A stretch of DNA of 64,000 nt from an uncultured Gammaproteobacteria bacterium (GCA_964473565.1 CAYYPI010000001.1:57854-121853); one strand, 5' to 3'; numbered from the stretch's first letter, positions 2,438 through 52,050 are shown. A program made the numbers and translations. Notes: a model not told the origin generated them from the letters alone.

Positions 2438-2551
2438 AATATTATGATAACTCCAAAAAGGAGTGTTAATTAGGTTTTTAAAGTCTTATCAGTATATCAA
2501 AGAAATAATTAATGGTCAAAAAAATATTCTAATAGCAATAGGGATATATAA

Positions 2552-3817: not shown

Positions 3818-3870
3818 ATAATCAATATAAATAACGCTTGCTTAAGAACTTTTAAATTTAAAATAGATAA

Positions 3871-4593: not shown

Positions 4594-4633
4594 ATATAAA
4601 TTTTATTATTAGCTAAGACTGTATTAGGATAGA

Positions 4634-5795: not shown

Positions 5796-7247
5796 TTAAT
5801 TTATTTCATTTAAAAACTCTACATCTTTTTTATCCCATCCTTTTAAGAGATAAAAGGTTAAGAAATATATACCTATGGCAATAAAAATAGTAGTCATTAG
5901 TCCGTACCAAGTATACTTAAAGGCACCGGGAATAATTAATATAGAAGCTAGCATCACTAGTGACGAGAGAAAGCTCTTGAAAAGCACCTTATGCTTAGGC
6001 AGGAAGCCGATAAACTTGTAGACATAGAATATAGCCATAATAGCGACCACAGCTTCACTATATACTGTCATCCAAGCTGCACCAATATATGAATATTTAG
6101 GAATAAAGAGAATGTAGCCAATTACTGAAGTAATACTGGTAAATATATAGATTGGTATTAACTTCTTTTGCTTATCAATTGCAATAATTGCATGTGAGAA
6201 CAAGGTGCCAATAAATATTAGAGCTCCTGCTAATATTAATATTTTTAGAACCTCAGCTGAGGCCTTAAATTCAGAGCCAGCAATTAAATGAATAATTTCT
6301 GTTGCTAAAAACTGCGTAGCAATTAAAACGGGTATAGCCAGTAGTATCATAAAGTCATAGCTCTTTTGAATTAACTTTTTAAACTGAAATACTTTTTTTA
6401 GCGCCCAGGTTCTAGTAAAAAAAGGTAGCATTAAACCTGCAAACATAAAAGGTACGGTCACTAAAACATCAATAACCTTATAGGCTGCGCCATAGATACC
6501 AACATCACTTTGTGGTTTTACCAGTGATAGTATTAAAGTGTCAGCTTTTAAATAAATTAAATTAAAAACAATAGTAAGTGCTAGGGGCCAAGACTTAATT
6601 GCTATTTCCTTCCAGATATTTAAGTCAAAACGCAAACTTATTCTTATAAACTTCCTAGAAAAAAGAAAGTGTAAAAGAAAATTAATTAGATTAGAAATAA
6701 CTGTACTCCATAATACACCATTTAAGCCCAGGTTATACCTTATTGCCAACCAAACTCCTAAAACTAAAAATAATCTCCCTCCTACCTCTGCGATAGCTGC
6801 CCTTTCCATTTTAAGCCTTTTCTGAAAAAGGCCAACTAATATTTGATTTAAAGCAATAAAAAGAAAAGAAAGAGATAATATAAGTACACCCATTTTAATA
6901 GTGTAGTCATAAGGAAAGAGCCAAATTAAAGCTGGACCTAAACTAAGAAAGATTATTGCTGAGACTAGTCTTAGTGCAAAAAGATTGTCTAATATTTTTT
7001 TCTCTGATACTCCAGGCAAGCTAATCATTTGCACCGTCACCAGCGTTAAACCTAAGTCAGCAATAATAGCAAAAATAGAGACAAACGTTATAATAGTAGT
7101 ATACTCACCAAAGCCATTAGCTCCTAGATAGCGAGTCATTAAGGCGGTGGCAATTAAAGCAATAGCAGTTGATATTATTTTGCTAAGTATTTGTATGCCT
7201 GTATTGTATGCTATCCTTTTTTGTAGTAGTGGAGCCTTAGTTGTCAT
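5796..7247 (-). CDS. polysaccharide biosynthesis flippase (Wzx/MOP superfamily)
   Basis: 483 aa, ~12-14 predicted TM helices, N-terminal pattern typical of oligosaccharide flippases. Confidence 0.6.
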   Translation of the reverse strand: MTTKAPLLQKRIAYNTGIQILSKIISTAIALIATALMTRYLGANGFGEYTTIITFVSIFAIIADLGLTLVTVQMISLPGVSEKKILDNLFALRLVSAIIFLSLGPALIWLFPYDYTIKMGVLILSLSFLFIALNQILVGLFQKRLKMERAAIAEVGGRLFLVLGVWLAIRYNLGLNGVLWSTVISNLINFLLHFLFSRKFIRISLRFDLNIWKEIAIKSWPLALTIVFNLIYLKADTLILSLVKPQSDVGIYGAAYKVIDVLVTVPFMFAGLMLPFFTRTWALKKVFQFKKLIQKSYDFMILLAIPVLIATQFLATEIIHLIAGSEFKASAEVLKILILAGALIFIGTLFSHAIIAIDKQKKLIPIYIFTSITSVIGYILFIPKYSYIGAAWMTVYSEAVVAIMAIFYVYKFIGFLPKHKVLFKSFLSSLVMLASILIIPGAFKYTWYGLMTTIFIAIGIYFLTFYLLKGWDKKDVEFLNEIN

Positions 7248-10543: not shown

Positions 10544-10607
10544 GACTTGGTGTTTGTGTTAAGCTAAGAATTTTTAGGTTTATTTTCAATGTATTACTTT
10601 ACTACTT

Positions 10608-10636
10608 TTGACAAAATCTCCTCCCTTTGTTATCAT
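10608..10636 (+). promoter_or_regulatory. sigma70-like promoter upstream of nusA
   Basis: TTGACA - 17 nt - TATCAT. Confidence 0.35.
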
Positions 10637-10725
10637 ATAATCAATATATAAAGCTAGTTGTTAATATAACAATTAGCTTTTTTAAATAATTAAAAAGATA
10701 ATAACTTAGATAATAAGTAAAAAAT

Positions 10726-12033
10726 ATGTCAGATCTATCAAGTGCCATACAACAGGTTTGTGATGAGAAAAACCTAGACTATGATATGGTGGTCTCAGCT
10801 ATTGAGATGTCTTTAGCTGCTGCCTATCGTAAAGATTATGGTGAAAAAAATCAAAACATTAAAGTAGAATTTGATCCTAAAACAGGAAAGTCTAAAATAT
10901 TTGATGTAAAAGAAGTTGTAGAGGATGTACCAGAAGAAGTTTTAGAAGAAATGAGACAAAGAGAAGAAGAGGCTAAAGAAAGAAGAGAAAGAAGAGCTCA
11001 AGGTAAGCCAGAGGAAAAGAAAGTTGAAGAAAAAAAACCTGAACTGAAAGAAGGTGAAGCTGAAGAAGAGGTAAGAAGGTTTAACCCTAGAACAGAAATA
11101 CAACTTAGTGAAGCTCAGATTTTAAAGTCTGGCGCTAAAGTAGGTGATGAAATAGTTACCGAGCTCCCTATCCCTGAAGAGTATGGCAGAATGGCTGCCC
11201 AAACTGCTAAGCAGGTAATCGTGCAAAAACTTAGAGAGATAGAAAGAGATATGATCTTCAATGAGTTTAAAGGTAAAGAAGGTGAGGTGGTTAGCGGTGT
11301 AGTGCAACGCAGAGAACCTAGGTTTGTGCTAGTTGATTTAGGAAAAGCTGCTGGTTATTTGTCTCATGATGAACAAATTCCACACGAACAATATAATTCA
11401 GGCGAAAGAATTAAAGTATATATTAAAGAAGTAAAGTTAGGACCTAAAGGGGCTGAGATAATTCTTTCTAGAAAATCAGAAGAGATTTTAAAGAAAGTCT
11501 TTTATCTTGAAATCCCTGAAATTTCTAATGGTTTAATTGAAATTAAAGGAGTAGCTAGAGAAGCTGGTTCTAGATCTAAGGTAGCGATATATACTGAAGC
11601 AGAAAATGTTGATCCAGTGGGTTCATGTGTAGGGCAACGTGGTGCTAGAATTCAGACAATTATTAATGAACTAGGAGGAGAAAAGGTAGATATTATTGAA
11701 TATGATGAAGATCCTAAGAAGTTTATCTCCAACTCTCTTTCACCTGCTCAAACAATAGAGATTGATTTAAATGAAGAAGAAAGAAAAGCAGTGGTAAAGG
11801 TAGCAGAGGATAAGTTGTCACTGGCTATTGGAAAAAATGGTCAAAATGTACGTTTAGCTGCTCATTTAACTGGTTGGAAAATTGATATTATTGCTGAAGG
11901 CGCTGAGATAAGTGAGGAAGCTGTAGAGGCATCAGCTACGCCTGAAGATGTAAAGAAGGATAAAGAGGACTTAGAAGAGGTAGTAGATGAAAAAGAAGAG
12001 ACTAAAGAAGAAGAGAAAAAGGAAGATAAATAA
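10726..12033 (+). CDS. nusA: transcription termination/antitermination factor NusA
   Basis: NusA N-terminal domain, S1 and two KH domains; charged insertion in NTD and K/E-rich C-terminal tail. Confidence 0.85.
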   Translation: MSDLSSAIQQVCDEKNLDYDMVVSAIEMSLAAAYRKDYGEKNQNIKVEFDPKTGKSKIFDVKEVVEDVPEEVLEEMRQREEEAKERRERRAQGKPEEKKVEEKKPELKEGEAEEEVRRFNPRTEIQLSEAQILKSGAKVGDEIVTELPIPEEYGRMAAQTAKQVIVQKLREIERDMIFNEFKGKEGEVVSGVVQRREPRFVLVDLGKAAGYLSHDEQIPHEQYNSGERIKVYIKEVKLGPKGAEIILSRKSEEILKKVFYLEIPEISNGLIEIKGVAREAGSRSKVAIYTEAENVDPVGSCVGQRGARIQTIINELGGEKVDIIEYDEDPKKFISNSLSPAQTIEIDLNEEERKAVVKVAEDKLSLAIGKNGQNVRLAAHLTGWKIDIIAEGAEISEEAVEASATPEDVKKDKEDLEEVVDEKEETKEEEKKEDK

Positions 12034-12121
12034 TCTAAATACTTAAAATAGATTAACAAGCTTTAAGCTTATTAAAGAAATTAAACTTAGATATTAAATA
12101 ATAAATTAATTAAGAAAAAGT

Positions 12122-14104
12122 ATGGAAAGCACTTATTTTATTATTGGTAGCGCAATTCTGGCATTAATATATGGAGTTGTTGCTATCAAATCAATTTTAA
12201 AATTACCTACTGGTAATGAGAAAATGCTTAGCATTGCTAAAGCTATTCAAGATGGAGCTAGAGCTTTTTTATCTAGACAATACAAAACTGTAGCAATGGT
12301 ATCAATCGTAGTATTTTTAATTATTGGTCCAACTTTAGGCTGGTTAACTGCTTGGGCTTTTCTAGCCGGTGCAGTTTTTTCAGGTTTAGCAGGATACATT
12401 GGTATGCATGTAAGTGTACGTGCTAATGTTAGAACTGCTGAAGCTTCTAGAACAGGCTTAAAACAAGGTTTAGCTGTAGCAGTTAAAGGTGGTAGTATTA
12501 CTGGAATGTTAGTGGTAGGTTTAGCCCTGCTTGGTACTGCCGGTTTTTACTTTTTAACTAAAGACTTAAGTGCTTTAATTGGTTTTAGTTTTGGTGGTTC
12601 TCTTATTTCTATCTTTGCCAGACTTGGTGGTGGAATTTATACAAAAGCAGCTGATGTAGGAGCTGACTTGGTAGGAAAGATTGAAGCTGATATTCCTGAA
12701 GATGACCCTAGAAACCCAGCTGTAATTGCTGATAATGTTGGTGATAATGTGGGTGACTGCGCTGGTATGGCAGCAGATCTTTTTGAAACATATGCTGTAA
12801 CTTCAATTGCTGCTATGATTTTAGGTTCTCTTACCTTTGTTGGTAATGAAAATGTTATTGTATACCCATTAGCTATTGGAGCAGTTTCAATTGTAGCTTC
12901 AATTATTGGTATTTTCTTTATTAAACTAGGAAAGAAACAAAACATTATGAAAGCTTTGTATAAAGGCTTAATTGCAGCAGGACTTCTTTCAGCTATTGGT
13001 TTCTATCCTCTAACACAATATTTCTTTGCAGATAATGCAGTGTATTCAGTAATGAATGTTTATTTAGCAGCACTAATTGGTTTGGTTGTTACAGCGCTAC
13101 TAGTAGTCATTACAGAATACTATACTTCAACTAAATATAGTCCAGTTAAAAGTATTGCCAAGGCTTCTGAAACAGGGCATGGTACTAATGTTATTGCTGG
13201 TTTAGCAGTGTCACTACAGTCAACACTCTGGCCTGTATTAGTAATTGTGGCAGCTATTATTGGTTCATACTCACTTCTTGGTTTATATGGTGTAGCTATT
13301 TCAGCTATTTCAATGCTATCTTTAACAGGTATTATTGTAGCTTTAGATTCATATGGTCCAATTACAGATAATGCCGGTGGTATTGCTGAGATGGCAGAGA
13401 TGGGTGAAGATGTGCGTGAAAAAACAGATGCTTTAGATGCTGTTGGTAATACTACTAAAGCGGTAACAAAAGGTTATGCTATTGGTAGTGCAGCCTTAGC
13501 AGCTTTAGTGTTGTTTGCTGACTATACTCACAGTATTGGTGATAATGTAGTCTTTTTAATTAACGATCCTTATGTACTTTCAGGACTATTTATTGGTGGT
13601 CTTCTGCCTTTCTATTTCGCTGCTCTAACTATGAAATCAGTGGGTAAGGCAGCTGGATCTGTGGTAACCGATGTAAGGAAACAATTTAGTGAAAAACCTG
13701 GCATTATGCAGGGCCTAGAAAAACCTAATTATGGTAGAACTGTTGACATTGTTACTAAGTCTGCTATTAAAGAGATGGTAATCCCCGCACTTATTCCAGT
13801 GCTTGCTCCAATAGTTGTAGGAGTAGTTCTAGGTGTTGAAGCTTTAGGAGGATTACTAGTTGGTTCAATTGTTACTGGTATTTTTGTAGCAATCTCTATG
13901 ACCTCAGGTGGTGGTGCTTGGGATAATGCTAAGAAATACATTGAAGATGGCCACTTTGGTGGCAAGGGTTCAGAAGCTCATAAAGCAGCTATAACTGGTG
14001 ATACAGTTGGTGATCCATATAAGGATACTGCTGGCCCAGCTATTAACCCAATGATTAAGATATTAAACATTGTAGCCCTACTGATCGTAGGTTTGCTACT
14101 GTAA
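12122..14104 (+). CDS. hppA: membrane-bound proton/sodium-translocating pyrophosphatase
   Basis: 660 aa polytopic; hallmark motif [18 protein letters not shown]. Confidence 0.9.
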
Positions 14105-14119
14105 TAATAACTATTTTTT

Positions 14120-15409
14120 ATGGAAACTAAGACACAAAAATTAGAAAAATCACAAGTTAAAATAACAGTTACCCTTCCTTGGGGTGATGTAGAAAAATAT
14201 CAAGAACAAGGAGCTCAAGAATTAGCTAAGAAGGTAAAGATTGAAGGTTTTAGACCTGGTAAGGTTCCTATGGATGTGTTAAAGCAGAAAGTAGGAGAAA
14301 TGGCTATTTTAGAAGAAGCTGCCTATATTGCTATTAACAAAACTATGGTGGAAGCAATTGAGAAGGCTCTACCTGAAGATCAGGCTATTGGTCAGCCAAA
14401 GGTTAATATTAATAAATTAACCACTGGCAGTGATTTAGAGTATCAAATTGAAATAGCTCTACTTCCAAAAACTGAAGTTAAAAAGTATAAAGATTTAGCT
14501 ATTGAAAAAGAAAAAGTTGAGATTAATGATAAAGAAATGGAAAGAACCTTGAAACAGCTAGCTGATATGAGAACGCAGGAAAAGATTGTTGAACGTGAAG
14601 TAAAAGACGGTGATAAAGTTTTAGCAGACATTGAAATGTTTCAAGATAATGTACCGGTTGAAGGAGGACAAAGCAAAGACGCCCCTATTATTATGGGTCA
14701 AGATGCTTTTATCCCTGGACTTGATAAAAAATTACTTGGAGCTAAAAAAGGTGAAAGCAGAGATTTTACCCTACCATTCCCTCCTAATCATCACCAAAAG
14801 AACTTAGCAGGTCAAAAAGTTGATTTTAAGGTAAAGATAAAGGATGTATATGAAAGACAGGTACCTGAAATTAATGATGAGTTTGCTCAAGGCTTTCAAT
14901 TTAAGAACCTTAAAGACTTAAAGGATAATTTGGGACAAAACATTAAGGCTGAGAAAGAGCAGAAAAATGAACAGAAAACAGAAATAAAGATTTTAGAGGA
15001 AATCATGAAAAATACAAACTTTGGTGATCTTCCTGATGTTTTAATTGAGAATGAAACTAAAAATATGATGGCTGAAATTAAGCAATCTGTTGAAAAACAA
15101 GGTGGGAAGTTTGAGGATTATTTGCAAAGCCTTGGTAAAAATGAAGAGCAAATTAAAGCAGATTTATTACCTGAAGCTACTAAAAGAATAAAGATTGCTT
15201 TGATTATTAAAGAAATTTCTAAGAAAGAAGATATTGAAGCTACTGAAAAAGAAGTAGCAGATAAGGTTGAAGAAATTAAAAAGCAGCATGCAGATAATAA
15301 AGAGGTGCAAGAGATGGTTAAAAGTGAAGAATATGCTAATTACGTTAAAAATCTTTTAACTAATCAGAAGGTAGTAGCTAAATTAAAAGAGTGGAATACT
15401 AAGAAATAA
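14120..15409 (+). CDS. tig: trigger factor
   Basis: 429 aa; N-terminal GFRPGKVP motif, FKBP-like middle domain. Confidence 0.8.
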   Translation: METKTQKLEKSQVKITVTLPWGDVEKYQEQGAQELAKKVKIEGFRPGKVPMDVLKQKVGEMAILEEAAYIAINKTMVEAIEKALPEDQAIGQPKVNINKLTTGSDLEYQIEIALLPKTEVKKYKDLAIEKEKVEINDKEMERTLKQLADMRTQEKIVEREVKDGDKVLADIEMFQDNVPVEGGQSKDAPIIMGQDAFIPGLDKKLLGAKKGESRDFTLPFPPNHHQKNLAGQKVDFKVKIKDVYERQVPEINDEFAQGFQFKNLKDLKDNLGQNIKAEKEQKNEQKTEIKILEEIMKNTNFGDLPDVLIENETKNMMAEIKQSVEKQGGKFEDYLQSLGKNEEQIKADLLPEATKRIKIALIIKEISKKEDIEATEKEVADKVEEIKKQHADNKEVQEMVKSEEYANYVKNLLTNQKVVAKLKEWNTKK

Positions 15410-15413
15410 TTAT

Positions 15414-15887
15414 ATGGGCACTTTGGCCTTTAATAGGCAAGCTAAAAGAGAGTATGAAATCTTAAAAACCTATGAAGCCGGGATGGTTTTAAAGGGTTAT
15501 GAGGTAAAGTCTGTTAAAAATGGCCAAATCAATTTAAAAGGTAGCTATATTGTTATTAAAAGAATAGAAGGTAAGAAAGATAAAGCTCTAGCTCCCTTTT
15601 TAGTTAAAGCTCACATACCTATATACAAGCCTGCCGGACAGAAAGATGAATATGACCCCTATAGAGATAGGCAATTACTATTAAATAGAGATGAAATTAA
15701 TCAGTTGATTGGTAAGTCGCAGGAGGCGGGCTTGACACTTATTCCCTTAAAAGTTTATACTAAGCATAACCTTTTAAAGTTAGAAATTGGCGTAGGTAGA
15801 GGAAAAAAGAAAGTAGATAAAAGGGAGGATATTAAAAAGAGAGATTTAGATAGAAGAATTAATGCTCTTAAAAAAAGAAGATTTTAA
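15414..15887 (+). CDS. smpB: SsrA-binding protein SmpB
   Basis: 157 aa; NRQAKREYEILKTYEAGMVLKGYEVKS N-terminal signature. Confidence 0.9.
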   Translation: MGTLAFNRQAKREYEILKTYEAGMVLKGYEVKSVKNGQINLKGSYIVIKRIEGKKDKALAPFLVKAHIPIYKPAGQKDEYDPYRDRQLLLNRDEINQLIGKSQEAGLTLIPLKVYTKHNLLKLEIGVGRGKKKVDKREDIKKRDLDRRINALKKRRF

Positions 15888-15893
15888 TATTTG

Positions 15894-16275
15894 GGGATGA
15901 CCGGCATCGATAGCAAGAGTCCCTTAAATATTCAGAGCGTGTCTGAGTGTACACGTAAATACCACTCAAAATTATAATTGCAAACAAACTTGCAAGCAAA
16001 GCTACTTTCGCATGGAAAGTTCCTAGCTTTGCACCTGTTGCTGCTTAAATAGCATGCAACCATCTGTCCAGCTAGCTCCGAGCTGGGTCACAGGTGTCAT
16101 CAGGAGCTCGACTTTAAGTTTTTGCTTTTAGGCTTAAGGTTTTAAACAAATAAAAGCTAGAAGTGCTTGGTTTCGTTTAGCTTAGACAAGTACTTTGAAA
16201 CCTTCAAGCTAAACTATCTCTGTAAAGTTATTTAAGAAGCCTTGTTAGACGCGGGTTCAATTCCCGCCATCTCCA
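15894..16275 (+). ncRNA. ssrA: tmRNA (SsrA)
   Basis: Starts GGGGATG, ends with tRNA-like T-arm GGTTCAATTCCCGCC and acceptor CATCTCCA pairing with 5' end; internal tag reading frame GCA AAC AAA ... GCT GCT TAA (…FAPVAA*); immediately downstream of smpB. Confidence 0.8.
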
Positions 16276-16342
16276 CATTTCTTAAAATCAAATTACTTAA
16301 AGTATTATATTATTTCCTTAAATAATATAATTTTTATATATA

Positions 16343-16426
16343 GCTGCGGTGGCGGAACTGGTAGACGCGTTGGACTTAAAATCCAATGGTAGCGATACCG
16401 TGGGAGTTCAAGTCTCCCCCGCAGCA
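16343..16426 (+). tRNA. tRNA-Leu (anticodon TAA), class II with long variable arm
   Basis: acceptor GCTGCGG/CCGCAGC, anticodon loop CTTAAAA, long variable arm, T-loop TTCAAGT. Confidence 0.8.
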
Positions 16427-16808
16427 CTAAAAAAACTGTGTTTGTCACAGTTTTTTTGTTTATACCCTTTACAAAACAAAAAAAATAAGCTAATATAATT
16501 TTAAGATCTTTAAACTATTACATAAAAAATATTATATACTTTTTAAAGTGATAATTACTAATTATATTTCATTTCTATTTATAGATCTGAAGCTAGTTTT
16601 TAAATTGAATTGTTAATTTGATTGATTGATTGTATTCGTTAAAAACTATCATTTGTTTTCATGGTTTACTAAATTGTGTTGTCTTTGTTCATTTACTTTT
16701 TAAAGTTGTATGGGGTTAGCTATTATAGTTAACCCCTTTTTTTCTTTTCTTGACTAAAGATTCCAGATTATATACAATATATTTGCTTTGAAAGAAGTTT
16801 TTTTATTT

Positions 16809-16880
16809 GCGGGTATCGTATAATGGCTATTACATTACCTTGCCAAGGTAGAGATACGGGTTCGATTCCCGTTACCCGCT
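16809..16880 (+). tRNA. tRNA-Gly (anticodon GCC), U73 discriminator
   Basis: acceptor GCGGGTA/TACCCGC, anticodon loop TTGCCAA, T-arm ACGGGTTCGATTCCCGT. Confidence 0.85.
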
Positions 16881-16900
16881 CACTGAATTATCGCAAGAAG

Positions 16901-16926
16901 CAGAGTTTAAAAGCTCTGTTTTTTTG
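16901..16926 (+). terminator. rho-independent terminator after tRNA-Gly
   Basis: cagagtttaaaagctctg hairpin followed by T7. Confidence 0.4.
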
Positions 16927-17127
16927 TTTTTTATGTTTATAACAAACTAAAATATTTTAATTAAAAGCAATAAATACAACCATAGTAAAAAAGAGGTTAT
17001 AAAAGTTAAAGCTAATATTTGAGGTTAACTCTATAATATAGCAATCTAAGAGAAAAAAATTTGTGAATTTGGATTTATTTTAAAGAAATTTTAAAGAAAA
17101 TTGTGTTAACTTATGTTAAAATTTGAA

Positions 17128-17156
17128 TTGACTCTAAGGCAGTAAAAGAGTAAAAT
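17128..17156 (+). promoter_or_regulatory. sigma70-like promoter of the R-M/AIPR operon
   Basis: TTGACT - 17 nt - TAAAAT, about 30 nt upstream of the methyltransferase ATG; a related sequence recurs upstream of the RhuM gene (22319-22362). Confidence 0.4.
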
Positions 17157-17187
17157 TAAATTAATAAAGTAATTTATAGAAATTATT

Positions 17188-18006
17188 ATGAAACCATATT
17201 TTAAAGATAAAAACTTTTCATTATATTTAGCTGACTCAACTAAATTTTTAAATGAAAATATAAAAGAAAATTCAGTTGACATGATATTTGCTGATCCGCC
17301 ATACTTCTTGTCTAATGGCGGATTTTCTGTTCACGCTGGAAAAAGAGTAAGTGTAGATAAAGGACAGTGGGATATAAGCAATGGATTAAAAAAAGACTTT
17401 GAATTTCATATAGAATGGATTAAACAATGTCATAGAGTTTTAAAACCAGGAGGAACTATTTGGATTTCTGGAACATATCACTCTATTTATCAGTGTGGCT
17501 TTGCTTTACAGGTTAATAAGTTTCATATTTTAAACGATATTGCTTGGTTTAAGCCTAATGCTTCACCTAATTTAAGTTGTCGTTTTTTTACTGCTAGTCA
17601 TGAAACACTTATTTGGGCTAGAAAAGAATTAAGTCATCCTAAAACTGGAAAAGCAGTAAAACAAAAACATAAGTTTAATTACGATTTAATGAAAAACGGT
17701 CATTGGCCAGAAGATTTTATTAAAAAACCAGGACTACAAATGAGAAGTGTTTGGTCCATGGGAACACCTAAACCAATAGAGAAAAAGCATGGCAAACACC
17801 CCACTCAAAAACCAATTGATCTTTTGGTTAGAATAATTATGGCTAGCACTGACAAAGGTGATACTGTTTTAGATCCTTTTACAGGTTCTTCAACAACGGG
17901 ATTAGCTTCTTATTTGAATGGCAGAAAGTTTATTGGTGTTGATTTGGAAAAGAAATACTTGGATTTATCTGTTAAAAGATTAAAAGATATTAAAAACAGT
18001 AAATAA
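17188..18006 (+). CDS. beta-class N6-adenine DNA methyltransferase, DpnA (M2.DpnII)-like, probable GATC specificity
   Basis: motif IV DPPY (MIFADPPYFLSNGG) preceding motif I (LDPFTGSSTTG); extensive similarity by recall to S. pneumoniae DpnA (VSVDKGxWD, PNLSCRxFT, GKHPTQKP, RFIGID). Confidence 0.85.
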   Translation: MKPYFKDKNFSLYLADSTKFLNENIKENSVDMIFADPPYFLSNGGFSVHAGKRVSVDKGQWDISNGLKKDFEFHIEWIKQCHRVLKPGGTIWISGTYHSIYQCGFALQVNKFHILNDIAWFKPNASPNLSCRFFTASHETLIWARKELSHPKTGKAVKQKHKFNYDLMKNGHWPEDFIKKPGLQMRSVWSMGTPKPIEKKHGKHPTQKPIDLLVRIIMASTDKGDTVLDPFTGSSTTGLASYLNGRKFIGVDLEKKYLDLSVKRLKDIKNSK

Positions 18007-18007
18007 T

Positions 18008-18925
18008 ATGAAATTTTTAGATTTTTATAAAAACAAGTTAAATTGCAAAACAGAAGATGAGGTTTTTAATTATTTAATTTCAAATTTACAAACATCAATC
18101 TCAGATTGGAGTTTTTTTGTTGACTGGGAAAAAGTTAAAAATCATATTTCTAATATTGAGACAGAATTAAATATATTAAATTCAGTTTTAGGTAAAAGCG
18201 ATTTAGATAATAAGTTTATTCAGATTATAAAAGAATATCCAAAAACTAAAAAGGCTTTATTAATTTTAATTGCAGTTAGGCACGAAAAATTAAAAGAAAG
18301 ACCAATATTAAATTTTAACGATGGCTTGAATGTTGAAGTTAAAGATTATATTTTTGATATAAAAAAAGAATTAACTCCAAAAATACAAAAGGAGTTATTA
18401 AGATTTTTTCACGAGAGTGGATTAAAAAGGATTTTTTATGATAAAAATATTAAAAATTTAGTTGATTATTGTTTTGGAGTTGAAGTTGGTATGGATACTA
18501 ATGCTAGAAAAAATAGGGGTGGTCATAATATGGAAGACATAGTCGAAGACTTTATTAAGAATATTTGTAAGAAAAATAATTATAAATATTTGAAAGAAGC
18601 AACTTCTGAAAAAATTAAAAAGGAATGGGGTTATGATGTTCCAGTTGATAAATCATCTAGAAGATACGATTTTGTAGTAGATAACGGAAAAGAGTTGTTT
18701 ATATTTGAAACTAATTTTTATGGTGGTGGTGGCTCTAAACTCAAATCAACTGCTGGTGAATATAGAAATTTATTTGATGTTTTGAAAGGAAAATATAAAT
18801 TTATTTGGATAACTGACGGATTAGGCTGGAAAACGACTGCTAAGCCGTTAAGAGAGACTTTTAATCATAATGATTATTTGTTTAATTTATCTATGTTAGA
18901 AAATAATATTTTAAATTTTTTATAA
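18008..18925 (+). CDS. type II restriction endonuclease, DpnII/MboI family (GATC)
   Basis: 305 aa; motifs VDYxxGVEVGMDTNxRKNR, NFYGGGGSKLKSTAGEY, FIWITDGxGW, LRETF, LENNIL recalled from R.DpnII; 2-nt gap to methyltransferase. Confidence 0.7.
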   Translation: MKFLDFYKNKLNCKTEDEVFNYLISNLQTSISDWSFFVDWEKVKNHISNIETELNILNSVLGKSDLDNKFIQIIKEYPKTKKALLILIAVRHEKLKERPILNFNDGLNVEVKDYIFDIKKELTPKIQKELLRFFHESGLKRIFYDKNIKNLVDYCFGVEVGMDTNARKNRGGHNMEDIVEDFIKNICKKNNYKYLKEATSEKIKKEWGYDVPVDKSSRRYDFVVDNGKELFIFETNFYGGGGSKLKSTAGEYRNLFDVLKGKYKFIWITDGLGWKTTAKPLRETFNHNDYLFNLSMLENNILNFL

Positions 18926-18928
18926 ATT

Positions 18929-20647
18929 ATGACTAGAATAGATCAATCCTCTAATCAAGATTACCATTTAGTCAAAATTAAAACTCAAGAAACAGTAAAT
19001 AAGTTAGGGAGTGTTTATGGATTCTCCGAAAATTCTATTGGCTTTGAATTTTTAGTACTTTCAAAAATATTTAAAAGGCAAGAAGATGAAATTATAGAAG
19101 ATATTACAGATTCTGTTTTTTTGAATAAATTATATAATCAGGATAGTGGCCCAGATAGAGGCATAGACGCTTTAATAATTGATAATGAAAAAAATATAAT
19201 TCATTTATTTAATTTTAAGTATACAGAAATTATTTTTAATAGAGTAAAAGAAAAAAATTTTCCTGGAAATGAAGTAAATGAGATAACTGTTTTCTTGAAG
19301 AATTTATATGAGAAAGAAGAGTCTTCTTTTTCGGGCAACTCGGCTAATAATAGATTAGAAGAAAAAGTAAAAGAAATTTGGAAAAAGCAAGAGGAAGGGG
19401 TAATCTTTACAATTGAAATCCATTTTGTCGCCAATTTGTTTAAAGGGTTAGCCGACCAAGAAGAACAAAGGCTTGTTTCTGAATTAAAAAATTACAGAAG
19501 CGATGTTTCTTTTAATTATATTTTAACTAGAGATATTGTAGACATTTTAATTAGCAGATCAGAAAAAATAGATTGCAAATTTAAAGCATTATCAAAAAAT
19601 TTTTTTGATAAAACAGAAGGCGGTAATAGAGCTTTAATACTAGAAATGTCAGCTTTAGACTTATTAAAAATTACAACTAATAATTTAGGATTAAGAAATA
19701 AAATTGATTTTGAAGATGAAGAAATAACTAATTCAAGTATAGAGGAAAATATTTTTGGTGATAATGTTAGAGTGTATTTAAAACAAAGAACAAATATTAA
19801 CAGGAATATTAAAGAAACGGTTCTTAATGATGAAGAAAAACCAAATATATTTTTTTATAATAATGGCATTACTATAACCTGCGATCACATAAAATATCAA
19901 GGACAAAGAAATCAAACTATTACATTAGAAAACTTTCAAATTGTTAATGGCGGCCAAACAGTGCATGCTTTGAGAGCAGCTTTTGAAGAAAATAGTGATA
20001 ATTTTGAAGAAATAACAATTTTGTGTAAAATTTATGAAACAGATAATCCTAATTTTAAAAGTAAAATAGCAGAATATACTAATAGTCAAAACCCAGTAAA
20101 AGATCGTGATATAAGGTCAATAGATCTTGTGCAAATCAAATTAGAAGAAGAGTTTAGGGATCTGGGATATTTTTACGAAAGAAAAAAAAGTCAATACGAG
20201 AATGAGAATAGAGATAAAAAAATAGATTCAGAAAAATTAGGACAATCTCTTTTGGCGTTCAACATAGAAATGCCGGCAGAGGCAAAAGATAAAAAAAGAA
20301 TAATATTTAGTGACAAATATGACGAAATTTTTAACGATACTTTATTAGCAAAAGACGCTTTAATTGTATTTAATCTTTATAAAGAAATTGAAATAAAAAA
20401 AATAAAAAATAAAAAGGAAAAACCCTATTTAATGCATGCAACATATTATATTATGTTTTTTATTAAAAGATTATATCAAGCAAAAAAGAAAAAACCATCT
20501 AATTTAATTGATCTATATGATGAGGCTATAGAAAAAATTGAAATAATTATAAAAAAAGAAAAAGAAAGGCTGGGAGAGGATTATCTAGATGCTGTCTTGT
20601 TTAAATCAAATAGACCTAAAGATTATTTAACAGAATTAAGTATGTAA
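18929..20647 (+). CDS. AIPR-family abortive-infection protein (N-terminal PD-(D/E)xK-like region + AIPR C-terminal domain)
   Basis: 572 aa; conserved IVNGGQTVHAL and FFYNNGITITCD motifs reminiscent of AIPR (PF10592); 3-nt gap to the endonuclease gene. Confidence 0.55.
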   Translation: MTRIDQSSNQDYHLVKIKTQETVNKLGSVYGFSENSIGFEFLVLSKIFKRQEDEIIEDITDSVFLNKLYNQDSGPDRGIDALIIDNEKNIIHLFNFKYTEIIFNRVKEKNFPGNEVNEITVFLKNLYEKEESSFSGNSANNRLEEKVKEIWKKQEEGVIFTIEIHFVANLFKGLADQEEQRLVSELKNYRSDVSFNYILTRDIVDILISRSEKIDCKFKALSKNFFDKTEGGNRALILEMSALDLLKITTNNLGLRNKIDFEDEEITNSSIEENIFGDNVRVYLKQRTNINRNIKETVLNDEEKPNIFFYNNGITITCDHIKYQGQRNQTITLENFQIVNGGQTVHALRAAFEENSDNFEEITILCKIYETDNPNFKSKIAEYTNSQNPVKDRDIRSIDLVQIKLEEEFRDLGYFYERKKSQYENENRDKKIDSEKLGQSLLAFNIEMPAEAKDKKRIIFSDKYDEIFNDTLLAKDALIVFNLYKEIEIKKIKNKKEKPYLMHATYYIMFFIKRLYQAKKKKPSNLIDLYDEAIEKIEIIIKKEKERLGEDYLDAVLFKSNRPKDYLTELSM

Positions 20648-20825
20648 AATTAAACTTACCACCAACCACTGTATTGCCCCGCTAAAAGCGTTGACCATAT
20701 GTTGTCCAAATGGTGATAAAAGTAGATATATTGAGTAGTTTTAGATAACTAAGATTAAACAATAATTACCTAATAATAGACAATAATTTGCATATACGGT
20801 GTTATTGTCTTTTTTGTTTCTCCGT

Positions 20826-20847
20826 TTCGATTCCCGTTACCCGCTCA
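20826..20847 (+). repeat. 22-nt exact direct repeat of tRNA-Gly 3' end (att-like)
   Basis: ttcgattcccgttacccgctca identical to 16861-16882. Confidence 0.8.
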
Positions 20848-20857
20848 AAGATACAAA

Positions 20858-20884
20858 AACAACCTCGAGAAAGGTTGTTTTTGT
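20858..20884 (+). terminator. rho-independent terminator
   Basis: aacaacctcgagaaaggttgtt hairpin + T5. Confidence 0.45.
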
Positions 20885-21004
20885 TAGGTAAAGTTTGACT
20901 ATTATCTATTTAGGGATGAATTCAAAAAGTTAGTATATTTGTTTGACAAGATATATACTAAGTTATAAGATAGTATATATAATAAAAAAGATAACAACTA
21001 ACTT

Positions 21005-22135
21005 ATGAATATTGAAATTTGTAAAAAAATCAAACAACCTGAAGGTTTTGAGGCATCCGTGCCTAACGATTTTCCTGTCAAAGGCCTGTTTGACATTTCT
21101 CAAGAATTGATAAATAAAGCAGGAGAGGCGGAGAGGTTAGTAGGAAAACTGGATGGCATAACTCAAATATTGCCAGATGTTCAGTTTTTTTTGAAAATGT
21201 TTTCATTAAAAGACGCTACCTCTTCAGCTCAAATTGAAGGAACTCAGGCAACTATTGTAGATGCTGTTGAGATGGACGCTGGAATTGATGGAAAAGAAAG
21301 CGATGCGCAAGATATTATTTTCTACATCAAGGCTCTTGAATATGGTATTGAAAGAATAAAAGAGTTTCCTTTATCATTAAGATTTATACGTGAACTACAC
21401 TCTAAATTAATGAAAGGTGCTCGTTCAACTCATTTTTCTGATCCTGGAGAATTTCGTAATTCACAAAATTGGATAGGGGGAACATCTCCCGCGAACGCTG
21501 CTTTCGTTCCACCGCCTGTTCATGAAATGAAAAGAGCTCTAAATGATTTAGAAAAGTTTATGTATGATCAAAAGTCAACATTACCTATTATTCATATAGC
21601 ATTTTTGCATGCTCAATTTGAAACAATCCATCCGTTTCTAGATGGTAATGGACGAGCAGGCAGGCTGTTGATTACTTTAGCTTTGTATAAAATGAAATTA
21701 TTAGAGAACCCTGTACTGTTTTTGTCTTCTTATTTTAAGCAACATCAAAAAGTATACTATTCTAAACTCAACAACTATCATTCAGGTGAGGTGTTTGAAT
21801 GGTTAGAATTCTTTTTAGATGGGGTTATTGATACAGCAAATAAATCAATTTCTATAGCAAAAAAAATTAAAGATATTTATAAGAATGATATGTTAAAGAT
21901 ACAGGCTCTTGCAAAAAGAGAGTCTGAAAGTGGAGCTTTAGTTTTATCTAAATTATATGGTAATCCAATTATAACAACTAAAATTATAATGGACTGGACA
22001 GGGTTTACACGTTCAGGGGCTCAAAAAGTGATAAACAGATTTGTAAAAATTGGAATATTGGAAATACGTGACGAAGAAGGAACTTATGATAAAAAGTATT
22101 CTTATAAAAAATATTTAGAAGTCTTTATTAATTAA
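21005..22135 (+). CDS. Fic-family protein (AMPylase-type), class II with N-terminal inhibitory motif
   Basis: Fic motif HPFLDGNGRAGR; upstream SxxxEG inhibitory helix motif (TSSAQIEGTQ). Confidence 0.85.
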   Translation: MNIEICKKIKQPEGFEASVPNDFPVKGLFDISQELINKAGEAERLVGKLDGITQILPDVQFFLKMFSLKDATSSAQIEGTQATIVDAVEMDAGIDGKESDAQDIIFYIKALEYGIERIKEFPLSLRFIRELHSKLMKGARSTHFSDPGEFRNSQNWIGGTSPANAAFVPPPVHEMKRALNDLEKFMYDQKSTLPIIHIAFLHAQFETIHPFLDGNGRAGRLLITLALYKMKLLENPVLFLSSYFKQHQKVYYSKLNNYHSGEVFEWLEFFLDGVIDTANKSISIAKKIKDIYKNDMLKIQALAKRESESGALVLSKLYGNPIITTKIIMDWTGFTRSGAQKVINRFVKIGILEIRDEEGTYDKKYSYKKYLEVFIN

Positions 22136-22206
22136 AAGAATATTCTTAACCACTTTCAATAACTTAACCCTAAGACAGATTTGACTAAGTTCCAGTTTGG
22201 AGCTCA

Positions 22207-22256
22207 CTAAATTATTGAAATAGCAGAATTTAAAAGCTCTGTTTTTTTTGCTATTT
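22207..22256 (+). repeat. imperfect copy of the sequence flanking tRNA-Gly (att-like)
   Basis: gctcactaaattattgaaatagcagaatttaaaagctctgtttttttt vs 16874-16926 gctcactgaattatcgcaagaagcagagtttaaaagctctgttttttt. Confidence 0.6.
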
Positions 22257-22385
22257 TTTTAAAACATTACTAAATTAATCATTATAATTATTAATAAAAA
22301 ATTAAGTAAATATTTGTTAAAGTTAAATTAACTCTAATTAATCTAAAGAGTAAAATTAAAACATGAAAGAAAAGAAAATAAAAAA

Positions 22386-22853
22386 TTAGCAATTTATCAA
22401 GCAGAAAATGGTGCAACAATTGAACTTTCTGTTGATTATAAAAAGGATACTATTTGGGCAAGTATAAATGAAATTGCCCTTCTTTTTGAAATTAATAAAT
22501 CAAATGTTTCTAGACATGTGAAAAATATTTTTTCTGAAGAAGAGGTTGTAAAAGATGCAACTGTTGCAAAAAACGCAACAGTTCGAAGGAAAGAAGGAGG
22601 CAGAGAAGTAGAAAGACAAATAGATTGTTATAGTTTAGATATAATTATAGCTATAGGATATAGAGCTAGATCAACAAAAAGGGCTACAGAGTTTCGTAAG
22701 TGGGCAACTAAAATTTTAAAAGAGCATATTACTCAAGGCTATACCATTAATGAAAATATTTTAAAGAAAAAGCAAGATTTATATCTAAAAGCTTTGGAAG
22801 ATATAAAATTATTATCTAAAAATAATAAAAACCTAAAACAAGTGATGTTTTAG
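22386..22853 (+). CDS. RhuM-family (virulence/defense-island) protein; N-terminus lacks canonical start, possible frameshift
   Basis: ATVAKNATVRRKEGGREVERQIDCYSLDIIIAIGYRARSTKRATEFRKWATKILKEHITQGYTINE matches RhuM core; conserved N-terminal region (LAIYQAENGATIELSVDYKKDTIW…) is in frame upstream of the GTG used by the ORF track but the only ATG (22363) is in another frame across a poly-A run. Confidence 0.65.
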   Translation, partial: LAIYQAENGATIELSVDYKKDTIWASINEIALLFEINKSNVSRHVKNIFSEEEVVKDATVAKNATVRRKEGGREVERQIDCYSLDIIIAIGYRARSTKRATEFRKWATKILKEHITQGYTINENILKKKQDLYLKALEDIKLLSKNNKNLKQVMF

Positions 22854-23017
22854 AGCTTATTAAATCTTTTGCTTATTTTGTTCAATGTAAAAAATGCATT
22901 AATATAAGTTGTACTTTTATTTTTTTGAAAAAGTTGTTTTGTAAAAATCCATTTTTATTGTTTTCAAGCTTTAAAACTGATAAACTTGTATTATAATTAA
23001 TAAAAGCGTAGTTTTAT

Positions 23018-23653
23018 ATGAATTTTGAAAAAAACTTTTTTGAGAATAATAAAAAAGAAAAAAATTTTGAGTTAAATTTTGAAGAAATGAATAATAAGGA
23101 AGTTCAGGATTCTTGCACTGCTATAGCCAATGAAATGCAAGGGTATTTGTCAATTCCTGCTAACATTAACTTTAAACCATCAAAAAATAGTGAAAACAAT
23201 GGATTTGCTTCGATATTACATAAAGAGTATAGAGATCCTGATTATCAGCATAATATTACTATAATTTACACTAATGAACATATAGAAGAAATACCATTTT
23301 ATTTAGCACATGAATTGGGACATTGTTTTGAAGAGCAAATTATTGATGTAGCCAAAAAAAATAAACTAGAGGTATACCCTAAAGAGTCACCCCTTTATGA
23401 TGAAATGGATTGGGAAGGGCCTTATGGTGATTTAATCGCTACTTACATTTTATCGCCTGAAAGTTTTAAAAAAAATGAAAATTTACCATATTTAGATAAT
23501 TGCAAAATAATTTTTAATGAGATCTTTGAAAACAAAGATTTTTCTGATTTAAGAACTCAAGTAGAAAAAAGTCAAAAAGAAAATAGCCAAGATTTTATTG
23601 GAGACAGAGTGTTTGATAAAATTAAAGAATATTTTGAAAAAAATAATAAATAA
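23018..23653 (+). CDS. hypothetical protein with HExxH zinc-peptidase motif (ImmA/IrrE-like?)
   Basis: 211 aa; AHELGHCFEE motif. Confidence 0.45.
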   Translation: MNFEKNFFENNKKEKNFELNFEEMNNKEVQDSCTAIANEMQGYLSIPANINFKPSKNSENNGFASILHKEYRDPDYQHNITIIYTNEHIEEIPFYLAHELGHCFEEQIIDVAKKNKLEVYPKESPLYDEMDWEGPYGDLIATYILSPESFKKNENLPYLDNCKIIFNEIFENKDFSDLRTQVEKSQKENSQDFIGDRVFDKIKEYFEKNNK

Positions 23654-23786
23654 TAAAGTGTTGAACTACGAAAACTTTAATAAAAGTTAATGCTAATAAT
23701 AACTTAGTTAAAAAATTATTTTTAAAAGAGAGCCTCAGTGTGTTAGTTAAAAAGAAAAAAAGGAGGTTTTTAAACCTCCTTTTGTT

Positions 23787-24059
23787 TTAGAAATCAATAT
23801 CAGTTCTGATATTAATTTTTTGTCCTTGTTTTAAATTTGGTATTTCCGTGGTTTCGTGAAAACTACCATTTTCAAACGTAAAGTGAGATTTGCCAGCCCC
23901 TTGAAAGACAGCGCCTCCATCGAACTTACTAACAATTCTAGCTTGTTCGATTTCTCTACCTTGAAATTGAGTATTTCTGGGACCGCAATGCGGACAACCC
24001 GGAACACCTCCTGCACAAATAGCACAACGCATAAATACCTCCTTTTTTAAAATGAACAA
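23787..24059 (-). CDS. small zinc-ribbon protein
   Basis: 90 aa; N-terminal CAICAGGVPGCPHC (CxxC-x7-CxxC); convergent with HExxH gene, shared bidirectional terminator at 23758-23790. Confidence 0.4.
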   Translation of the reverse strand: MFILKKEVFMRCAICAGGVPGCPHCGPRNTQFQGREIEQARIVSKFDGGAVFQGAGKSHFTFENGSFHETTEIPNLKQGQKINIRTDIDF

Positions 24060-24203
24060 ATGTTTATAATATAGTACAATGTATTTATTTTTACTTCAAG
24101 TGATTAAAATATATAAATTGATTTCTAAGCCTATAAAAGCTATAATAAAGTTGTAGAGCTTATAATTAAATGAATAAATTGCTATTCATATATATTTTTA
24201 ATT

Positions 24204-27455: not shown

Positions 27456-27629
27456 TGCTATTAATTTTGATTAAACATTATTTGATTGTAAAGAATATTA
27501 AATTCTATGATATTGTCTAAGTTTTGTCAATTTAAAATTGAGTTTAAACTGCATTATTTCAGTATTTTGTAATTATAATGTATTTATTCTATTATATAGA
27601 TATATTATTATAGTTTTAAATATTCTTAC

Positions 27630-28811
27630 ATGACTCAGATTAATAAGTTTTATTTAGCTTCCTTTTTAAAGAATCAAATTTACTTTGTTCCTGTTATTGT
27701 TTTATTTTTTCAAGACCTCGGTCTTGACTATGCACAAATCTTTTGGATATTCACTGCTGGCTCTATCTTCGCTTTTATTATTGAAATACCCACTGGGATA
27801 TTAGCTGATCTTTATGGTAAGAGAACTAGTATTATTTGGTCAAAGTTTGTAATATTTTTAGCTTTTATAGCTTTTGCTATAGCTGAAAACTTTTGGGGAC
27901 TTCTTTTAGCTAATTTATTATATGAACTTGGAAAAAGCTTTCGTTCAGGCACAGAAACTGCCTTTGTTTATAATTATCTACTGGAAGATAAAAATAGGCC
28001 TAGCTATACCAAGGTAAAATCTAATCAAAAGTTTTATGCTAGAATTTCAGAAAGTATTGGTACAGCTCTGGGTGGTTTTTTAGCTTATCAATTTGGTTTT
28101 AGTTTTGTCTTCTTTATTGCTGCTATTCCAGCCTTTATTAATTTCTTGCAAACTTTAACTTGGGAAAAGATTAAAGAGAATTTGTATAAAGGTAAGTTTA
28201 GTTGGAGAAAAAATGCCCTATTTGCTACTGAGTCCATTCAGGAAATCTTTAAATCTTTTGCTTTGAGAAAAGTGGTAGCTAATATTGCTATCTTCACAGC
28301 TGTGTTTGTAGCTGCTGATAAGTTTATTCAGCCATACATGAAGGAGGTTGGCATTGAAATACAATATTTTGGTTTAATATATTCAGCCTTTTTAATATTA
28401 ACTGCTTTCTTGGTGAGGTATTCATATAAATTAGAAGATAGATTTGGCGGAGTTAGGCTTATGAATTATCTTAGTCTCTTAGCCTTTTTACCCTTAATAC
28501 TTTTAGGTACAGGTATTAGTGCTGTTTGGGGAGTAGCGCTTTTCTTTTTTGTGATGATGGTAGAAAATATTAGATCACCAATAGCTAATACTTTATTTCA
28601 TCAAAATGTTAATTCTGATAATCGCTCTACCATGGGCTCAATACTTCAGCTTTTTAAATCTTTAGCCCAGTTAATACTACTGCCTGTAATTGGTTACAGC
28701 GCAGATATCTTTAGTGCTTCTACTGCTATATTTATTTTAGGGGTAGTGTTATTTTTAAATGCTACTTTGTTTTGGATCTCCAGAAGAAATTTAAAAGAGA
28801 AGACTGTTTAA
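27630..28811 (+). CDS. MFS transporter
   Basis: 393 aa, 10-12 TM helices, MFS-like loop motif GKRTSIIW. Confidence 0.65.
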   Translation: MTQINKFYLASFLKNQIYFVPVIVLFFQDLGLDYAQIFWIFTAGSIFAFIIEIPTGILADLYGKRTSIIWSKFVIFLAFIAFAIAENFWGLLLANLLYELGKSFRSGTETAFVYNYLLEDKNRPSYTKVKSNQKFYARISESIGTALGGFLAYQFGFSFVFFIAAIPAFINFLQTLTWEKIKENLYKGKFSWRKNALFATESIQEIFKSFALRKVVANIAIFTAVFVAADKFIQPYMKEVGIEIQYFGLIYSAFLILTAFLVRYSYKLEDRFGGVRLMNYLSLLAFLPLILLGTGISAVWGVALFFFVMMVENIRSPIANTLFHQNVNSDNRSTMGSILQLFKSLAQLILLPVIGYSADIFSASTAIFILGVVLFLNATLFWISRRNLKEKTV

Positions 28812-46682: not shown

Positions 46683-46717
<35 letters not shown>

Positions 46718-47895: not shown

Positions 47896-47927
<32 letters not shown>

Positions 47928-48955: not shown

Positions 48956-48969
48956 AATCGTCCTAAGGT

Positions 48970-51100: not shown

Positions 51101-51150
51101 ACAGGCTAGTCCCGCCCAAGCGTCCACAGCGACGGCGGGGTTCGGCACCT

Positions 51151-51961: not shown

Positions 51962-51997
51962 CGATGTCGGCTCGTCGCATCCTGGGGGTGAAGAAGC

Positions 51998-52050
<53 letters not shown>

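Follow-up and report, generated by a model that had tools for sequence, protein, structure and literature searches.

A probable tandem array of integrase-less element remnants forms a defence island at a tRNA-Gly(GCC) gene in a Patescibacteria genome

A cluster of defence genes lies directly downstream of a tRNA-Gly(GCC) gene in a 64,000-nt stretch of DNA (GCA_964473565.1 CAYYPI010000001.1:57854-121853), here called the window, which comes from a Patescibacteria (candidate phyla radiation, CPR) genome (G+C ~32%; top matches of its SmpB in Patescibacteria metagenome-assembled genomes, MAGs). We conclude, with a probability of about 0.8, that three remnants of tyrosine-recombinase elements, all without an integrase, stand here in tandem, inserted at the 3' end of the tRNA gene: a restriction-modification (R-M) and AIPR unit (unit 1, 16883-20847), a Fic unit (unit 2, 20848-22206) and a RhuM unit with downstream DNA (unit 3, 22207 to ~23751). 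Accretion at one att site is supported, and the integrase appears to have been lost by deletion. An earlier reading of this DNA, the original prediction, had implied either lost or trans-acting integration machinery or a novel cassette mechanism. Lost machinery fits units 1 and 3, because relatives hold integrase-bearing versions with the same arms and backbone at the same tRNA, while the Fic unit leaves some room for trans-acting machinery. Neither the R-M/AIPR unit nor the RhuM unit calls for a novel mechanism.

The repeats on which that prediction was built are present in the window. The 22-nt sequence TTCGATTCCCGTTACCCGCTCA, which spans the T-loop to the 3' end of tRNA-Gly GCC at 16861-16882, recurs exactly at 20826-20847; there is no third copy with up to 3 mismatches, and the number of matches expected from shuffles is 0, even at 3 mismatches. 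The sequence that follows the tRNA (16882-16954), said to recur imperfectly near 22207-22256, was found again at 22206-22277 with 78% identity (E=5e-9), and a terminator 24-mer occurs in the window at positions 16900 and 22223 only, the two copies differing by 1 mismatch. The promoter regions of the DNA methyltransferase (MTase) and RhuM genes, also claimed to be paralogous, are 75% identical (17087-17160 versus 22286-22360; E=9e-6), and both stretches contain TTGACT/TTAACT-N17-TAAAAT. Gene families were assigned with Pfam and PADLOC profiles, which recovered the predicted R-M, AIPR, Fic and RhuM genes, and junction signals with terminator and promoter scans. The division by repeats into three units stands insofar as units 1-3 are all found, but the third site has no good copy of the tRNA end; this junction carries a degenerate core, GTTTGGAGCTCA, that is part of a distinct conserved element end. 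Judged by their sequence, the repeats are att scars of tyrosine-integrase elements that inserted repeatedly at one tRNA-Gly(GCC) site.

The same locus retains its integrase in relatives. All comparison sequences (L-numbered loci or contigs) are metagenome assemblies, and three of them, L001, L092 and L106, are pieces of one 94-kb contig from a close relative, which matches the window at 93% identity in SmpB and at 87-89% nucleotide identity in the flanks. In L001 the tRNA-Gly gene is followed by the terminator T1, an integrase gene, an HTH_17 excisionase-like gene, a Rep_ORF2/G2P-type Rep gene (PF23343), a homologue of the non-coding backbone of the window (85% identical to 16937-17088), a promoter and cargo. 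The integrase (393 aa; PF00589 and SAM_3/PF14659) is encoded on the opposite strand, with its stop codon inside the tRNA 3' end, and the cargo after the TTGACT-N17 promoter consists of an MTase fusion, a Schlafen/AlbA_2 ATPase and a ResIII-nuclease. At ~10.4 kb from the tRNA the L001/L106 element closes in a right arm, which matches window 20656-20859 at 92% identity, and an exact core.

Unit 1 is collinear with the L001 element except that it lacks L001 ~2233-4600, a stretch with a GC-rich hairpin and the genes for integrase, excisionase and Rep. Aligned to L001, L095 and L093, it is missing the integrase-excisionase(-Rep) block through a single, clean deletion. This collinearity identifies unit 1, at the level of sequence, as an integrase-deleted member of the same family of integrative elements. 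Its T1 is 88-92% identical to T1 of L001, L093, L094 and L095, and its backbone is 84-85% identical to L001 4601-4751, L095 7287-7437 and L093 1-133. As had been claimed, no integrase or recombinase lies in or beside the island: searches of the 64-kb window by tblastn with the relative's integrase and with a hidden Markov model (HMM) from 80 family members gave noise only. All that unit 1 retains of its integrase is the last ~18 codons (residues 376-393; tblastn), read from the minus strand at 16928..16875. The MTase and DpnII-family restriction endonuclease genes of unit 1 adjoin and are both intact, with near full-length PADLOC MTase_II and REase_II matches, and are predicted to form a type II R-M system of the DpnII type.

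At its right-hand side, unit 1 keeps the full set of arm motifs (20670-20707), including candidate arm-type 7-mers, GTTGACC and GTTGTCC, at 11-nt spacing; the left-hand 7-mer pair is absent because it was deleted along with the integrase. Since the left-arm sites are gone, unit 1 alone is probably unable to excise, and its departure would require a newly arrived integrase-bearing element at the tRNA to take it along (cis-mobilisation). The right arm is 87-92% identical to the arms of L106, L096-L104, L107 and L117, and its motifs stand at equal distances from the core in L083, L081, L008 and L106. The terminator (16882-16934) and ~150-nt backbone are 84-92% identical to those of relatives, though the integrases are ~50% identical to that of L001 and the hosts' SmpB 52-58%; either module exchange or strong constraint (promoter/operator, or perhaps a Rep origin) would account for this conservation.

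Integrases of this family lie beside the same tRNA-Gly in L004, L008, L081, L083, L087, L093, L094 and L095 (44-71% identical to that of L001), and homologues number at least 1796 at E<=1e-20, those with a named source being mostly from Patescibacteria. In L010 a family integrase (11081-12103) stands directly after the tmRNA, which hints at a second target site. The 22-nt core of the window also flanks integrase-bearing elements in L083, L081, L106 and L107. Where the second copy fell inside the fetched DNA, the direct repeats at both ends measured 22 nt (L083, 7.4 kb), 25 nt (L081, 11 kb) and 29-33 nt (L008, 5.0 kb), and in every bounded element the identity sets in at the T-loop's first base. 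The distal repeat in L096-L104 reads ...GCTCCA, with a native encoded CCA (attR in L097), and is followed by the native terminator, while the tRNA carries the element's ...GCTCA copy, a pattern expected from strand exchange to the left of the CCA difference, plausibly in the T-loop.

Integrase-bearing elements have a 7-mer pair (GTTGCCC, GTTGACC or TGTGGCC) with an 11-nt period at +106 to +127 past the core, within the integrase 3' coding region, and a counterpart at -137 to -125 ahead of the distal core, with a TGTATTGCC-like motif near -156. We infer that the paired 7-mers are arm-type sites, by analogy with lambda-type integrases and from their position and co-variation. Cargo in this family is overwhelmingly defence-related and differs between elements: L008 has Schlafen and DpnI, L081 an OLD-type nuclease, L087 RelA/SpoT with a large NTPase, and L004 terS with a primase. 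The L004 element (11408-16666), also at tRNA-Gly, is phage-satellite-like and combines the family integrase with terS, a CHC2 primase and DUF5659.

The original prediction called for an empty site and variable cassette content in relatives, as opposed to an invariant gene order, and both were found. In L107, L108, L111 and L116 (flanks 88-93% identical), the tRNA-Gly core is joined straight to the terminator T2, Fic, the Fic unit's right junction (type-B, below) and the terminator T1' of unit 3; in L107 the tRNA-Gly core itself occupies the attR position, directly before T2 and Fic, and window 20826-22247 corresponds to L107 5622-7049 with 86% identity. Thus, unit 1 is present or absent precisely at the core. 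L096-L104, whose ROK protein is 94% identical, have a right arm, a core and the native terminator ~40 bp before the homologue of window 23752, and no homologue of Fic, RhuM or the 23018-23653 gene. Their arm is preceded by one of two cargoes: a DUF8328 gene, or an MTase (85% nucleotide identity to that of the window) with a MutH-family gene and AIPR. The more distant L002 has infC two bases after tRNA-Gly and represents the empty site; L001/L106, L101 and L097 hold other cargo.

The variable region is larger than proposed, reaching at least 23751. Relative to distant genomes, the interval from tRNA-Gly to infC is 15.7 kb; we rejected the reading of this entire interval as an island, since the ROK to PduO block is common to the closest relatives, which leaves ~16883-23751 as the clearly accreted part. 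Between the array and the MFS gene, the window and L096 have ROK-ASL, L106 has ROK-TreT (10001-13388) and L109 has no such block, its 9150-9330 aligning with window 27561-27738. The plastic region may extend to ~27560.

Deletion of the integrase has occurred more than once. Window unit 1, window unit 3 and the T1' element of L107 show three integrase deletions with different end points, a pattern suggestive of repeated decay. In the T1' element of L107 the 145 nt next to the core survive, the left-arm 7-mers among them, and the sequence then resumes in mid-backbone; window unit 3 keeps T1' and the promoter region with little between them. Integrase-less units also lie between exact cores in L106 (5848-6935; 1.1 kb, an MliC/META lipoprotein, its own right arm) and in L083 (2156-3770; 1.6 kb, a 395-aa unknown protein, arm sites on both sides), in both cases just distal to an integrase-bearing element.

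Unit 3 appears to be older kin of unit 1, with a larger deletion and without its right end. T1' is common to L107 up to 22247, and a KTELLNSA-like integrase C-terminus, read directly from the sequences, is still encoded on its minus strand. The RhuM gene is probably a pseudogene: the ATG at 22363 is out of frame, in a frame that stops after 8 codons, and the RhuM reading frame is open from 22365 without a start codon. The closest relatives lack the segment 20883-23751, to which the open reading frame (ORF) at 23018-23653 belongs. This ORF probably makes up the rest of the unit 3 cargo and may encode a so far uncharacterised defence or anti-defence function. Its product was considered as a homologue of the relatives' DUF8328 cargo, and this was rejected for want of similarity.

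Unit 2 has a different architecture. A promoter-like site precedes Fic at 20943-20971 (promoter scan), and the unit ends 70 nt past the Fic stop codon; it contains no integrase and no arm-type 7-mer repeats, the 7-mers having been checked for the Fic unit of the window. T2-type hairpins, AACCTC-N4-GAGGTTGTTTTT, come after cores and junctions in L107, L117 and L010. The right end of the unit, which we call type-B, closes in the degenerate core TTTGACTAAGTTCCAGTTTGGAGCTCA (22180-22206) and aligns with six other junctions of differing cargo: three in L107 (~6945-7007, 11535-11598 and 12190-12253), two in L117 (~5236-5296 and 5650-5720) and one in L010 (8264-8330, minus strand). The 3' sequence is ...CAGGTTTGACTAACTTCCACTTTGGAGCTCA or ...AACTTCTTTTAATAACTTAACCCTAAAACAGGTTTGACTAACTTCCACTTTGGAGCTCA, and a terminator hairpin is always next. 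L107 also has type-B units with LPD3 and RHH-YafQ, L117 has a short one and L010 one of 1.3 kb, none of them with an integrase. In L117, an independent Pacebacteria assembly whose contig terminates upstream at the backbone, homology covers the right arm, core, T2, Fic and type-B end and halts exactly at 22206. Fic has 7795 homologues at E<=1e-60, the source-named ones mostly from Patescibacteria MAGs; exact-protein look-ups with the Fic, IF3 and L20 of the window returned no record.

From the sequences at hand, a T-loop crossover with the tRNA could not yield the degenerate core of type-B units. These units could be offspring of one decayed junction spread by recombination, or trans-moved cassettes exchanging near GCTCA. 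Tentatively, and on balance doubtfully, they may constitute a distinct class of defence/toxin gene cassettes, inserted at the GCTCA end of the tRNA-Gly core by a trans-supplied Patescibacteria integrase. If so, a type-B cassette would run from a hairpin terminator through a promoter and a single gene, or an operon of two, to the conserved ~60-nt end, and the locus would be an integron-like, tRNA-anchored cassette array working beside larger integrase-bearing elements. Two other identities were considered for this end. A decayed tRNA-Gly promoter region gave p ~0.01 for the degenerate core in a window-versus-window comparison, but was not significant across 6 type-B ends and 9 tRNA upstream regions, and was rejected; a sigma-70 promoter was unsupported, with a conserved -35-like TTGACT and no consistent -10 in the alignment.

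Table 1. Features of the tRNA-Gly(GCC) locus in the window, in order of position.
Feature	Position	Strand	Description and evidence
Local gene order	SmpB 15414-15887; tmRNA 15893-16276; tRNA-Gly(GCC) 16809-16881		NusA, H+-pyrophosphatase, trigger factor, SmpB, tmRNA, tRNA-Leu, tRNA-Gly(GCC)
tRNA-Gly(GCC)	16809..16881	+	Proposed integration target; downstream of smpB, tmRNA and tRNA-Leu; ARAGORN and Rfam; gene order the same in relatives
attL core	16861..16882	+	22 nt, first base of T-loop to 2 nt beyond the discriminator; putatively element-supplied copy without encoded CCA
Terminator T1 and deletion scar	16883..16936	+	Hairpin 16895-16924; scar 16925-16936; terminator scan
Conserved non-coding backbone	16937..17088	+	In intact elements between mobility module and cargo
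Cargo promoter	17128..17156	+	TTGACT-N17-TAAAAT; promoter scan; aligns with TTGACT-N17-TATGAT of L001 and L095
Type II N6/N4 DNA methyltransferase	17188..18006	+	PF01555 1.9e-55 (1-220/221); PADLOC MTase_II 6e-90
DpnII-family restriction endonuclease	18008..18925	+	PF04556 6e-91 (2-277/278); PADLOC REase_II 9e-90
AIPR / AbiU-like abortive-infection protein	18929..20647	+	PF10592 2.7e-50; PADLOC AbiU 5e-49
Right arm of unit 1	20654..20825	+	TGTATTGCC 20670-20678; GTTGACC 20690-20696; GTTGTCC 20701-20707
attR core of unit 1, left boundary of Fic unit	20826..20847	+	Exact 22-nt repeat
Terminator T2, left end of Fic unit	20848..20884	+	Hairpin 20855-20882
Fic/DOC protein (SoFic-like)	21005..22135	+	Pfam Fic_N and Fic; PADLOC SoFic 1e-102
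Type-B right end of Fic unit, ~60 nt	22146..22206	+	Closes in degenerate core
Terminator T1', left end of unit 3	22207..22277	+	Hairpin ~22222-22248; 78% identical to 16882-16954
Paralogue of unit-1 cargo promoter region	22286..22360	+	TTAACT-N17-TAAAAT at 22328-22356; promoter scan
RhuM-family gene, N-terminal domain only	22363..22853	+	PF13310 2e-22; PADLOC PDC-S05/S23
211-aa protein with HELGH (HExxH-like) motif	23018..23653	+	No Pfam or PADLOC match

These data suggest how the array may have been assembled. An intact element, to judge from relatives, begins with the 22-nt core from the T-loop, its own terminator and a convergent integrase gene with its last codons overlapping terminator and core, continues with an HTH_17 excisionase, sometimes a rolling-circle-type Rep, the non-coding backbone and a sigma-70 promoter with defence cargo, and ends with a ~190-nt right arm bearing paired arm-type sites and the core again. 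If recombination follows tyrosine-integrase chemistry, integration would rebuild the tRNA from the element's copy, pushing older insertions outward. In the order of events that we infer, a T1'-type element with RhuM and the 23018 gene would have integrated first and then lost its integrase and right end; the Fic unit would next have come between the tRNA and the T1'-type element, a state shared with L107; and the DpnII-R-M/AIPR element would have come last, by integration at the tRNA followed by loss of the integrase, excisionase and Rep. The defence genes presumably persist because they remain useful after the mobility genes decay.

Several points weigh against this account. The insertion order rests on few relatives, and precise loss of unit 1 in the L107 lineage would fit equally with its gain in the window lineage. 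Contigs often break at the locus, and a chimeric join via the shared arm and core is possible in metagenome assemblies. The Fic unit departs from the canonical plan: it lacks a right arm bearing arm-type sites, and simple decay does not explain why its degenerate right core should be conserved between genomes. The window, with the rest of the genome unseen, has no integrase and no sign of current mobility. Viral-contig scans with the core and type-B end found no excised circle or attP junction, and the exact core, T1 and type-B end had no match in IMG/VR viral contigs that would represent excised or phage-borne forms.

The integrase-less units might instead be functional cassettes moved in trans by a family integrase from another place in the genome or from an adjacent or incoming element, as an integron-like or satellite-like defence shuttle. 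The exact cores and intact right-arm sites of unit 1 would suit such a shuttle, as would the integrase-less unit 2 of L083 with arm-type sites on both arms, the type-B units (terminator, promoter, cargo, ~60-nt end ...GTTTGGAGCTCA) with Fic, LPD3, RHH-YafQ or unknown genes in four genomes, and the Fic unit itself, which has at least two right-hand contexts and ends exactly at GCTCA. We nevertheless consider it unlikely: unit 1 of the window lacks the left-arm sites found in every integrase-bearing element, the three differing integrase deletions resemble decay and not design, the window has no integrase and no circular forms were found, and the differing left contexts of the Fic unit are accounted for by other elements that inserted at the tRNA or left it. 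Far less probable still is an assembly chimera, in which strain variants were joined through their common ~200-nt right arm and core and the units never stood in one cell. Contigs of close relatives do fragment exactly at the locus, and several cargo variants have near-identical arms, but the right arm, core, T2, Fic and type-B end occur in the same order in L117 (85% identity, 1.6 kb), the Fic-T1' junction is also present in L107, and both flanks are collinear with relatives. Ordinary terminator or promoter paralogues, or chance, unrelated to mobile DNA, can be dismissed as the origin of the repeats, despite an AT-rich genome and an intrinsic-terminator hairpin at each junction, since shuffles yield no matches, the window holds no further copies such as ubiquitous terminator paralogues would leave, and identical cores and arms flank integrase-bearing elements in many genomes.

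Read as a tandem array of decayed integrative elements, the locus belongs to a well-known kind of system, tandem accretion and decay, resembling either cis-mobilisable elements (CIMEs) or tycheposons. CIMEs and tandem accretion are described for islands of the integrative and conjugative element (ICE) or integrative and mobilisable element (IME) type, such as the ICESt1-related elements of Streptococcus thermophilus (PMC5704250). There, too, insertion is site-specific at a gene 3' end, integration genes are deleted while attL and attR are kept, later elements integrate at the same site to give tandems, and a remnant leaves only with a functional neighbour. This description would fit window unit 1 and the integrase-less second units of L106 and L083. 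Loss of integration genes is evident in the collinearity of unit 1 with L001, L095 and L093, and its putative attL and attR have exact cores and an intact right arm, with the left-arm repeats missing. Unlike CIMEs, no member of this family shows conjugation or mobilisation genes, intact relatives having only an integrase, an excisionase and in some cases a rolling-circle-type Rep; the elements reside in the tiny genome of a Patescibacteria lineage, and the cargo consists almost entirely of defence genes. Unit 1 is also more decayed than a textbook CIME in having lost its left-arm sites.

Tycheposons of Prochlorococcus (bioRxiv 10.1101/2020.12.28.424599) are likewise tyrosine-recombinase elements at tRNA genes of a streamlined genome, with partial-tRNA flanks, successive integrations that push older elements deeper, and degenerate remnants with extra partial tRNAs. 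They share a mobility/replication module with variable cargo, and some have phage-satellite-like relatives (compare L004 with its terS and primase). They differ in phylum, in carrying nutrient-acquisition rather than defence cargo, and from the Rep_ORF2/G2P-type initiator found here. Genomic islands at ssrA (tmRNA) in Dehalococcoides (PMC3146451) are also reported to integrate site-specifically at the 3' end of a small-RNA gene, whereas the target here is the neighbouring tRNA-Gly and not the tmRNA, although in L010 a family integrase directly follows the tmRNA, and the cargo is other.

The resemblance to integrons that the original prediction raised did not hold up. Arrays of short, mostly single-gene units with a common end at one site are a shared trait, type-B units coming closest. 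However, the junctions here are tRNA-end repeats or a type-B end with simple 7-bp-stem terminators rather than attC, each unit has its own sigma-70-like promoter and terminator, and the recombinases of relatives are lambda-type (PF14659 and PF00589), with arm-binding domains and excisionases, converging on the tRNA. No IntI, attI, attC or Pc was found in the window, no attC covariance model having been run. As for features of tRNA islands in general, the window has flanking direct repeats of the tRNA 3' end (16861-16882 and 20826-20847), and presence/absence or differing content is seen among relatives. An integrase at the tRNA-proximal end is absent in the window and present in eight relatives (L001, L004, L008, L081, L083, L087, L093 and L095), and of the arm repeats, with their putative binding-site role, the right pair (20690-20707) is present and the left pair is not.

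Patescibacteria, a phylum that has been little studied, have very small genomes and are often called poor in classical defence systems and mobile elements. The locus described here is a concrete, recurrent route by which they may gain and swap defence genes, among them R-M, AbiU/AIPR, Fic, RhuM, Schlafen-type ATPases, DpnI, OLD-type nucleases and toxin-antitoxins. The route would consist of small tyrosine-integrase elements aimed at the tRNA-Gly beside the tmRNA, with mobility genes quickly deleted after the cargo arrives. Several of its parts can be tested directly, namely the att core as defined here, the candidate arm sites, the integrase-less mini-units and the non-coding backbone with its strong conservation. 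The conceptual advance is modest because accretion and decay are already known from streptococcal CIMEs and Prochlorococcus tycheposons. A description of the Patescibacteria tRNA-Gly element family was not found in the searchable literature; genomic islands in Patescibacteria have been reported in general terms (PMC12455944).

An Rfam e-value scan of 16700-24200 returned tRNA only, with nothing in the non-coding backbone or arms. Assemblies of the closest relatives (L090, L096-L105, L107-L116) break off at the locus, and the contig that encodes the exact SmpB of the window stops just past smpB. A near-identical ROK was located on 19 contigs and a near-identical Fic in 45 index blocks, and the majority of these contigs are <10 kb; such breaks suggest strain heterogeneity and repeats. 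Elsewhere in the window, the rRNA operon (46111-52840) is rich in introns and homing endonucleases. Its 23S rRNA match stretches over 4.1 kb, versus a 2.9-kb model, and contains two LAGLIDADG_1 ORFs (48343-48882 and 49209-49676). Past the Rfam 23S end, and before the 5S rRNA (52724-52840), come two LAGLIDADG_2 ORFs (50332-50958 and 51242-51823).

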